Assembly: GCA_942493365.1 (NCBI GenBank) | Contig: OW818697.1 | Location: forward strand, 1,122,634 to 1,186,633 | Direction: 5' to 3' | DNA length: 64,000 bases | Origin: an uncultured Clostridiaceae bacterium | GTDB taxonomy: Bacteria > Bacillota > Clostridia > Saccharofermentanales > UBA5734 | Shown: one piece after another, positions 51,449 through 51,953 of the stretch | How the letters are laid out: the number at the start of each line of letters is the position of its first letter | How positions within the stretch are numbered: the stretch's first letter is position 1 | Translations under genes and position numbers: made by a program | Notes under the pieces: generated by a model | Seen by the model: only the letters and a program-made list of their open reading frames with translations | What the model was told of the DNA's origin: nothing | The model's database searches: none

Positions 51449-51559
51449 CGACGAAAGACGAAAGATGAAAGATGAAAGACGAAAGATGAAAGACGAAAGA
51501 TGAAAGATGAAAGATGGTGGAATGATAATCCTTTCATTTCTCATCCGACTCATCACCAT
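51449..51559 (+). repeat. heptad array + end box + short inverted heptads + ACTCAT box
   Basis: CGACGAA AGACGAA AGATGAA x2 AGACGAA AGATGAA AGACGAA AGATGAA x2 AGATGGT, then GGAATGATAATCC (to 51531), then TTTCATT TCTCATC CGACTCATCACCAT. Confidence 0.9.
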
Positions 51560-51711
51560 TTAGCACAAGCGTTGGCAAGCTCAAATTTTTATCAGAAACA
51601 TCTCAAATTTCGTATTTATCATATAGCCTGAATGTTCTATCTCAAATAAAATACAGAATGCACAGGATATCACAAAGGCGGTACACCTTCTTGATGAGGA
51701 GGTGATGCTTG

Positions 51712-51786
51712 ATGGAATATTTAGTCGCGTTGTACCTGATCATCTTGATCAGTACAGTTCTGCTGAATAGATCAAAAAAGCAATAA
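51712..51786 (+). CDS. 24-aa hydrophobic peptide, hypothetical
   Basis: ATG 51712 with GAGGAGG 9 nt upstream. MEYLVALYLIILISTVLLNRSKKQ, TAA 51784-86. Followed by the hairpin AACCGCCGAG...CTCGACGGTT. Flanked by the 13-bp inverted repeat CACAGGATATCAC (51661-73) / GTGATATCCTGTG (51851-63). Confidence 0.35.
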   Translation: MEYLVALYLIILISTVLLNRSKKQ

Positions 51787-51898
51787 CCGCCGAGTAGCAG
51801 CTCGACGGTTACTTAGGTAAACTAAGAAACTATTCCGGATATCGCTCGACGTGATATCCTGTGTTTATTATAAACCTGCAGTATCAAAAATGCAACAA

Positions 51899-51953
51899 GG
51901 AATGATAATCTTTCACCTTTCACCCTTCACCTTTCATCCGACTCATTACCATG
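51899..51953 (-). repeat. end-box fragment + heptad array (minus orientation) + ACTCAT box
   Basis: GGAATGATAATC, then TTTCACC x2 CTTCACC TTTCATC, then CGACTCATTACCATG. This is a direct-repeat partner of 51519-51559. Confidence 0.85.

Follow-up and report, generated by a model that had tools for sequence, protein, structure and literature searches.

The window considered here is a 64,000-nucleotide (64 kb) stretch of DNA from an uncultured Clostridiaceae bacterium, and the region of interest separates two divergent gene sets within it. The minus strand encodes a HisKA_3 kinase at 50309-51406 and, at 49680-50312, a regulator of the NarL/GerE type; the plus strand encodes an ATP-binding cassette (ABC) ATPase (52077-53009) and two ABC2_membrane_3 permeases. 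This gene content resembles that of the Bacillus subtilis LnrJK/LnrLMN type of module. The intergenic region contains a 339-bp cassette (51560-51898), located between two copies of a box/heptad/box repeat unit. The cassette is AT-rich: its GC content is 38%, compared with 40% for the 670-bp intergenic region and 56% for the window. It carries a very short open reading frame (ORF) along with two predicted convergent RNAs, and is discussed below as a candidate type I toxin-antitoxin (TA) module.

A short hydrophobic reading frame and two predicted RNAs

A preliminary description of this DNA noted a 24-codon ORF preceded by a strong Shine-Dalgarno (SD) sequence. Both are indeed present, with GGAGG positioned 9 nt before the ATG codon (Table 1). 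The peptide has 12 hydrophobic residues out of 15 in the segment LVALYLIILISTVLL, with a core GRAVY (grand average of hydropathy) value of 2.9, and ends in the tail NRSKKQ. In a uniform scan for short ORFs (SD, hydrophobic stretch, and polar tail), this was the only intergenic match in the 64 kb. The criteria of Fozo et al. 2010 describe type I toxins as shorter than about 60-70 residues, with at least 10 of 15 residues drawn from I, V, L, F, C, M, and A, and with a polar, charged, or aromatic carboxyl-terminal tail (PMC2887945). Gram-positive type I toxins are membrane-associated and have a charged carboxyl terminus (PMC6563280). The peptide displays the hydrophobic stretch and polar carboxyl terminus of the former description, and fits the latter.

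The 13-bp inverted repeat that surrounds the ORF also proved to be perfect (51661-73 and 51851-63). The predicted plus strand promoter, TAGCCT-17-TAAAAT, places a transcript start near position 51660, at the left repeat arm. The right arm is included in a terminator-like hairpin (51837-59) followed by UGUGUUUAUU. The two arms thus fall at the predicted 5' end and at the predicted terminator, and the repeat makes better sense as part of an RNA than as the ends of a transposon.

The predicted plus strand mRNA is highly structured. The 13-bp repeat joins its 5' end to its 3' end, with a closure probability of 1.0. The fold of RNA 51660-51872 has a free energy of -85 kcal/mol and a z-score of -7.8 (-8.6 in a slightly wider frame), and none of 200 shuffled sequences was as stable. 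(A 200-nt sliding scan cannot frame the 203-nt closure and so under-scores the plus strand; these values come from properly framed folds.) Moreover, the SD sequence GAGGAGGUG is predicted to pair with upstream CACCUUCUU, forming the anti-SD hairpin CACCUUCUU-GAU-GAGGAGGUG with a probability of at least 0.98. This hairpin was predicted in every nascent prefix tested.

The second predicted RNA is convergent with the first, and has full complementarity to the 3' end of the ORF mRNA. It is predicted to end in a good intrinsic terminator: a GC-containing 13-bp stem (51813 to 51782) followed by U6 (to 51773). The predicted fold, at -30.4 kcal/mol and a z-score of -3.9, consists of two hairpins: one at the 5' end, and the terminator itself. 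The antisense promoter and terminator were missed in the preliminary description; together, they make a toxin-antitoxin pair of type I the more specific reading.

Another minus strand promoter sequence, TTGAGA-16-TATGAT (51618-51645), stands back to back with the sense promoter. At 10 of 12 positions it is the best promoter match in this intergenic region, with a predicted start near 51611, and it points toward the kinase gene from inside the cassette. Its transcript would enter a long hairpin formed by direct-repeat copy 1 and array A (Table 1), followed by a U-rich heptad tract. This promoter could serve a further small RNA, or could be an insulated upstream promoter for the kinase gene. The 10-mer TTTATCATAT from this promoter region recurs at the proximal kinase -10 region (51438-47).

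Table 1. Features between the kinase and ABC operons, in window coordinates (TRF, Tandem Repeats Finder)
Feature	Position	Strand	Basis
Degenerate operator palindrome ATGACAGTTTATCAT with 3-nt spacer; adjoins kinase start; left edge of extra DNA	51431-51445		pattern search
Element A: A-rich (GAAAGAY) array, about 9 copies	51449-51516	+	TRF 51453-51516, 9.1 copies, 91% match
End box GTGGAATGATAATCC, variant of family box GCGGA(A)T..AATCC; forms the loop that joins array A to the inverted heptads	51517-51531
Direct-repeat copy 1 (element B1): ATGGTGATGAGTCG, 2 heptads, GATTATCATTCC	51519-51559	-	repeat finder, pattern searches
Back-to-back predicted promoters (plus, TAGCCT-17-TAAAAT; minus, TTGAGA-16-TATGAT)	51618-51652		consensus matches only
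Predicted small mRNA, about 210 nt	51660-51872	+	fold, terminator and promoter predictions
24-codon ORF MEYLVALYLIILISTVLLNRSKKQ: one hydrophobic helix, then a polar, basic tail	ATG 51712 to TAA 51784-86	+
Predicted antisense RNA, about 90 nt; overlaps last 4-5 codons and 3' untranslated region of ORF mRNA	51770-51862	-	terminator, fold
Predicted antisense promoter TTGCAT-17-TATAAT; start near 51860	51867-51895	-	9/12 positions, perfect -10 hexamer
Direct-repeat copy 2 (element B2): ATGGTAATGAGTCG, 4 GRTGAAR heptads, GATTATCATTCC; abuts canonical operator	51899-51952	-	TRF, repeat finder, pattern searches
Ancestral ABC-operon regulatory region: operator ATGACAAATGTCAT, block TCAGGAGGATGCTCACT, SD	51951-52076	+	alignment with L001, L005, L006

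Extra DNA between two operator copies

The repeats at this locus were read directly and checked with TRF, a repeat finder, and pattern searches with shuffled controls. All of the local features in the preliminary description are present, no more than 1-3 nt from the positions given there and far beyond chance. Array A ends in the box GGTGGAATGATAATCC (51516-51531), followed by inverted heptads and then CGACTCATCACCAT, ending at 51559. The same elements recur in direct orientation at 51899-51952, as GGAATGATAATC, four copies of CTTTCAY, and CGACTCATTACCAT. For array A, TRF counts 9.1 copies, so the ten units first reported include degenerate ends.

The two box/heptad/box units thus form direct repeats of 41 and 54 bp, which differ in the number of CTTTCAY heptads and by two to three substitutions. 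The 12-mer GGAATGATAATC occurs exactly at 51519 and 51899, and the 14-mer CGACTCATYACCAT exactly at 51546 and 51939; neither has a further exact copy in the 64 kb. The boxes of the two units match at 12 of 12 and 15 of 16 positions, whereas other family members in the window have different boxes. Since B1 and B2 are much closer to each other than to any other member, local duplication or recombination is indicated rather than two independent arrivals.

The nearest kinase orthologues, from three loci designated L001, L005, and L006, are 59-62% identical, and all three retain the divergent kinase/ABC layout. (Genome contigs scanned with the kinase contained no relative above 59% identity.) The start codons of the two operons lie approximately 145-190 bp apart in these relatives, with the L005 value measured from an internal ATG rather than from the longer gene call, versus 670 bp in the window. 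Alignment with the three relatives identified an invariant palindrome, ATGACAATTGTCAT, then a conserved block, TCAGGAGGAT.GTCACT, and then the SD sequence. In the window, this conserved ABC regulatory part starts at 51951, directly after direct-repeat copy 2.

The palindrome presumably functions as an operator. Its form is ATGACA-N2-TGTCAT, and it occurs once in each of the three relatives. Across the 64 kb, the pattern ATGACA-N2-3-TRTCAT has just two matches, 51431-45 and 51951-64, against a chance expectation of 0.12. Element A begins 3 nt after the first of these palindromes, and B2 directly adjoins the other. Two operator copies in the window, compared with one per relative, delimit about 505 bp (51446-51950) as extra DNA bracketed by operators. 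At the corresponding kinase/ABC position, the three relatives retain the operator and ABC leader and contain no cassette, no small ORF, and no heptads.

The closest genome found, L007, is a congener whose IlvC protein is 96% identical and whose DNA is 72-82% identical. It lacks the entire regulator/kinase/ABC module.

Downstream of the TCAGGAGGAT.GTCACT block is a frame of 12 codons plus stop, equal in length in all four genomes. In the window it is MLTVCLRMGLAE* (51999-52037), and elsewhere it lies at approximately 5281-5319 in L005, 4622-4660 in L006, and 2112-2150 (minus strand) in L001. The SD-like AGGAGG abuts the start of this frame, which makes its translation doubtful. A conserved leader element for the ABC operon is one possible interpretation of the frame.

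A candidate toxin-antitoxin module and its alternatives

What is shown here consists of the features in the sequence, the statistics of the folds, and the block's absence from the relatives; the transcripts, translation, toxicity, and antisense control are inferred. The most specific interpretation of the cassette is as a candidate for a new family of type I toxin-antitoxin modules, with a TA-like mechanism to which a probability of about 55% seems appropriate. In this model, the plus strand mRNA of about 210 nt would encode a 24-residue, single-helix membrane peptide. The anti-SD hairpin, along with the perfect pairing of 5' and 3' ends through the 13-bp repeat, would keep this mRNA untranslatable; CACCTTCTT is predicted to restrain translation of the ORF. 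The convergent RNA from the minus strand, about 90 nt long and equipped with a separate promoter and terminator, would drive degradation of the mRNA or hold it inert. The block of about 505 bp presumably was inserted into a once-short kinase/ABC control region, and so would now lie between two operator copies.

The arrangement recalls several known systems. The B. subtilis pairs txpA/RatA, bsrG/SR4, bsrE/SR5, and yonT/SR6 share three properties with the candidate as predicted (PMC6563280; PMC5848175): a small hydrophobic peptide with a charged carboxyl terminus; a convergent antisense RNA of about 100 nt that overlaps the 3' end of the toxin mRNA; and placement in variable or island DNA. The candidate differs in having no sequence similarity to these pairs, in its length (24 versus 28-60 residues), in lying outside any prophage, and in being known from sequence only.

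For the hok/sok system of plasmid R1, the full-length mRNA is closed by pairing between its 5' and 3' ends and its ribosome-binding site is sequestered, so that the message is inert as made. The end-to-end closure and hidden SD sequence predicted here recall this fold-back inhibition. However, hok has the leader ORF mok and an antisense RNA that overlaps at the 5' side, whereas the cassette has 3' overlap, no mok-like ORF, and no homology.

The Escherichia coli loci ldr/rdl (long direct repeats), ibs/sib, and zorO/orzO also were first noticed as intergenic repeats. The Ibs toxins are very short, at 18-19 residues. Repeat-embedded type I loci in E. coli lengthen their intergenic regions in comparison with strains without them, as for yehI-yehL (0.3 kb versus 1.2 kb; PMC2887945). 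In those cases, however, the toxin locus itself is what is repeated, whereas the toxin unit described here occurs once in the 64 kb and has heptad repeats on its flanks.

Several points weigh against a toxin-antitoxin module. Every promoter is predicted by match to a consensus, and the match is weak (8 of 12 positions) for the sense promoter. The peptide, at 24 residues, is shorter than the Gram-positive type I toxins, for which ranges of 28-60 and 34-59 residues are given (PMC6563280). The Fozo et al. screen used a spacing of 400 nt or more to the upstream and 250 nt or more to the downstream flanking gene (PMC2887945). The ORF is 291 nt from its downstream neighbor, which is sufficient, but only 306 nt from its upstream neighbor; this spacing is a heuristic rather than a definition of type I systems. 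Furthermore, the same appearance would be expected of a small, harmless membrane protein paired with a cis-antisense RNA.

For neither the peptide nor the RNA was a homologue found in Pfam, NCBIfam, Rfam, viral contigs, metagenome contigs, or plasmids. The peptide had no Pfam match, and known toxin families (Fst/Ldr, TxpA/BsrG, Hok, Ibs, and others) were not matched. NCBIfam returned only a sub-threshold match to ComGE (14.6 bits, versus a cutoff of 49), and Rfam returned only noise for the cassette RNA. In viral contigs, neither a degenerate peptide pattern nor a pattern of the two repeat arms was found. The two-arm pattern matched three metagenome contigs, all unrelated: two long assembly-type palindromes and one coding sequence. 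Searches of plasmids by blastn and tblastn found no match.

The preliminary description viewed the region as a mobile or recombining cassette. This reading is supported in part: the extra DNA has no counterpart in the three relatives, and the flanking units fit local duplication or recombination. Against mobility, the inverted repeat has no target-site duplication, searches found no second copy of it, and no recombinase adjoins the cassette. A specific version can be formulated, in which a circular 339-bp unit with one box/heptad/box copy recombined at a chromosomal copy, leaving the 41- and 54-bp direct repeats as att-like junctions. This is a serious alternative, but a doubtful one. It accounts for direct repeats at both junctions, for boxes that match each other (12/12 and 15/16) and differ from those of other window members, and for the missing block in all relatives examined; moreover, an IS110-family element (61363-62882) shows that a heptad array can be an insertion target, and heptad elements occupy module junctions in the variable interval between IlvC and ABC-3. 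Yet the module contains no integrase or transposase, the nearest being that of the IS110 element 10 kb away, whose similarity to the cassette is limited to chance matches of 11-12 nt. In viral, metagenome, and plasmid collections, neither an empty site nor a second copy was seen. The relatives lack the heptad units too, and hence provide no true empty site; with kinases of only 59-62% identity, they are too distant to date or polarize the event. Finally, unequal crossing-over between heptad arrays would give an identical footprint without mobility. Integration and a toxin-antitoxin function are compatible, with the TA pair as cargo.

Two further alternatives concern the cassette itself. Its inverted repeat could mark a miniature inverted-repeat transposable element (MITE): a non-autonomous transposon of 203 bp (51661-51863) with the 13-bp perfect termini CACAGGATATCAC and GTGATATCCTGTG, in which the ORF would be incidental. 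Such repeats, 177 nt apart, have a chance expectation of about 0.003 in the region (the authors' estimate), and strong RNA folds are common among MITEs, which may also harbor promoters or terminators. Nevertheless, this explanation is very improbable. The flanks (...GAATG on the left, TTTAT... on the right) have no common repeat that would represent a target-site duplication; a second copy was found neither in the 64 kb nor across 115 kb of related loci, nor among viral and metagenome contigs scanned with both arms as pattern; and the predicted transcript ends fall at the arms. Rather than one palindrome along its whole length, the interior has local hairpins placed to sequester the SD sequence and to terminate both strands. 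Alternatively, the cassette could be an accessory part of the two-component/ABC-2 module, its peptide a membrane modulator of the kinase or transporter, or its structured RNA a regulator of the operons, with no toxin involved. Small membrane proteins that modulate sensor kinases exist, and the cassette does lie between the kinase/regulator and ABC operons. This is unlikely, however: the same module in three relatives, with approximately 145-190 bp between start codons, has no such ORF or RNA; the operator is not placed to control the cassette promoters; and the ABC promoter and leader, which are located downstream of the cassette, are conserved where it is absent.

Two other candidates were rejected. 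A leader or riboswitch for the ABC operon is incompatible with the conserved ABC promoter and leader downstream of the cassette, present also in relatives without it. An analogy with agr RNAIII and delta-toxin fails because the helix is transmembrane rather than amphipathic, the regulator is of the NarL/GerE type, and the relatives lack the RNA.

Confirmation of the toxin-antitoxin module would add a type I toxin family that is new and, at 24 residues, unusually short, from a lineage of Clostridia that is largely uncultured and has been sampled poorly. For the Clostridia, one review covers type I systems mainly from Clostridioides difficile (PMC6563280). The locus also shows how about 500 bp of DNA, made up of repeats and the cassette, can divide a short, shared control region for a two-component/ABC resistance-type module, with an operator copy kept at each end. 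Nevertheless, a TA-type module is a known kind of thing; the repeat family that surrounds it is the less ordinary part.

An intergenic family of heptad arrays

The wider point is this repeat family: 13 arrays in 64 kb, strand-asymmetric, with end boxes, common to the congener, and a target for an IS110-family element. All 13 period-7 regions of the window are intergenic. Beyond the locus described above, arrays are found at 10070, 28434, 28651, 30777, 30926, 36744, 55327, 56928, 57003, 61307, and 62883. Their units include GAAAGAY, GRTGAAR, AACAGGT, AACGAAC, and GCTAAAA. Read on the A-rich strand, most arrays finish in a box of the form (TT)GCGGAT-N4-5-AATCC or GCGGAATGA-NN-ATCC; such boxes follow arrays at 28459, 28637, 30806, 30909, 55360, 56911, 56988, and 51517, and in L007 at 11040 and 17949. 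Several arrays begin directly 3' of an intrinsic terminator, for example AAAATCGGCttgcGCCGATTTT.

The family extends to some relatives. L007 has arrays of the same architecture (11007-11057 and 17940-17995) with its own box, GCGGATTATTAATCC, and one copy occupies the orthologous position after IlvC. L005 has one array (7104-7168). No heptad array was found in L008 at a TRF score of at least 40, and the family was not seen in a relative with an 87% identical IlvC. Element A, with its end box (51449-51531), fits the family in being intergenic, A-rich, of period 7, and terminated by a GCGGA(A)T..AATCC-type box. The end box and heptads are not specific to the cassette, for the same family occurs across the window and in L007. 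The flanking heptads, end box, and direct repeats are best explained as members of an intergenic repeat family specific to the lineage.

Additional copies of the ACTCAT box had been proposed at the start of the 61301 array and at 62917-62938, both within class-2 arrays that flank the IS110-family insertion on either side. The supposed third copy (62919-32) has mismatches at 3 of 14 positions, which is chance level: 8 such matches are found in the window and 9 are expected. The common element of the 61301 and 62926 sites is instead an exact TGAGTGGTGAA. A general second box type for class-2 heptads is thus supported by two loci only.

The IS110-family element sits inside a class-2 heptad array. 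Its transposase gene runs from 62646 to about 61470 on the minus strand, with a PF01548 match (5e-39) at 62155-62646 and a carboxyl-terminal part that seemingly is in another frame (61731-62219). The junction flanks are ...GGTGAAGGGTGAAG/ACTaac... and ...aatACT/AGGGTGAAGGATGAAGG, with ACT at both junctions. Because the 61301 and 62883 arrays flank the insertion, they represent two sides of one split array. Heptad arrays are therefore real insertion targets. In the element's 5' non-coding region lies TTCACCCT, a match to the heptad that could act as a guide (bridge-RNA-like) segment.

No description of such heptad arrays in Clostridia was found by a text search of a collection of papers. Cyanobacterial STRR (short tandemly repeated repetitive) sequences also are intergenic heptamer arrays. 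The TAACTGA repeats of Beggiatoaceae, Cyanobacteria, and Bacteroidetes are likewise abundant intergenic tandem heptamers, in patchy lineages and with function undescribed (PMC4679880). The heptamer unit of the TAACTGA and STRR repeats is not matched by any unit in the window. Unlike the TAACTGA repeats, the window arrays comprise several classes in one genome, are A-rich and strand-asymmetric with a conserved GCGGA(A)T..AATCC end box, and lie mostly downstream of genes or terminators, not just upstream of start codons. Repetitive extragenic palindromic (REP) sequences and bacterial interspersed mosaic elements (BIMEs) provide another comparison, as dispersed extragenic elements located downstream of genes. 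REP sequences are targets of IS110-family elements, and one array here carries such an insertion. The arrays differ, however, in consisting of tandem heptads plus a box, rather than 35-bp imperfect palindromes; no transposase of the RAYT (REP-associated tyrosine transposase) type was seen in the window.

The stretch from ilvC to the ABC-3 transporter gene (43462-57061 in the window) is a variable hot spot, with different contents in the window, L007, and L008. L008 has nothing there; in L007 it contains TetR-FtsX-ABC, DUF4143, acetyltransferase, and DEAD helicase genes; and in the window it contains DUF4143, the ABC-2/kinase module, and TetR-FtsX-ABC. Several of the module junctions are occupied by heptad elements. 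By this comparison of gene content, the two-component/ABC module is located in a variable stretch of chromosome.

At long odds, the heptad and box elements might be recombination scaffolds that seed beside hairpin-forming DNA (terminators, operator palindromes) and capture or exchange short gene cassettes. If so, the kinase/ABC locus would be a caught example, with nested duplications (the operator, then box/heptad/box) around a TA mini-cassette; the IS110 element within its array would be a second example; and the variable IlvC to ABC-3 interval would be the product.

Two tandem genes elsewhere in the window (26455-28404 and 28722-30749; 649 and 675 codons) end in near-identical 3' sequence, which by eye resembles flagellin-like carboxyl termini. 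Each is followed by a near-identical unit of terminator, AACAGGT heptads, and box. This suggests either that the heptad elements were co-duplicated with the genes, or that they were homogenized later.

Finally, the strongest fold signal among the window intergenic regions (z-score of about -12) comes from a perfect 42-nt palindrome, AGTTAGCGGCAAAGATGTGAC followed by GTCACATCTTTGCCGCTAACT, at 33175-33216. Rfam returned only spurious microRNA matches for this sequence. The palindrome lies between divergent genes at 31198-33063 (minus strand) and 33302-34948 (plus strand), the latter apparently leuA from synteny with L008 gene calls.

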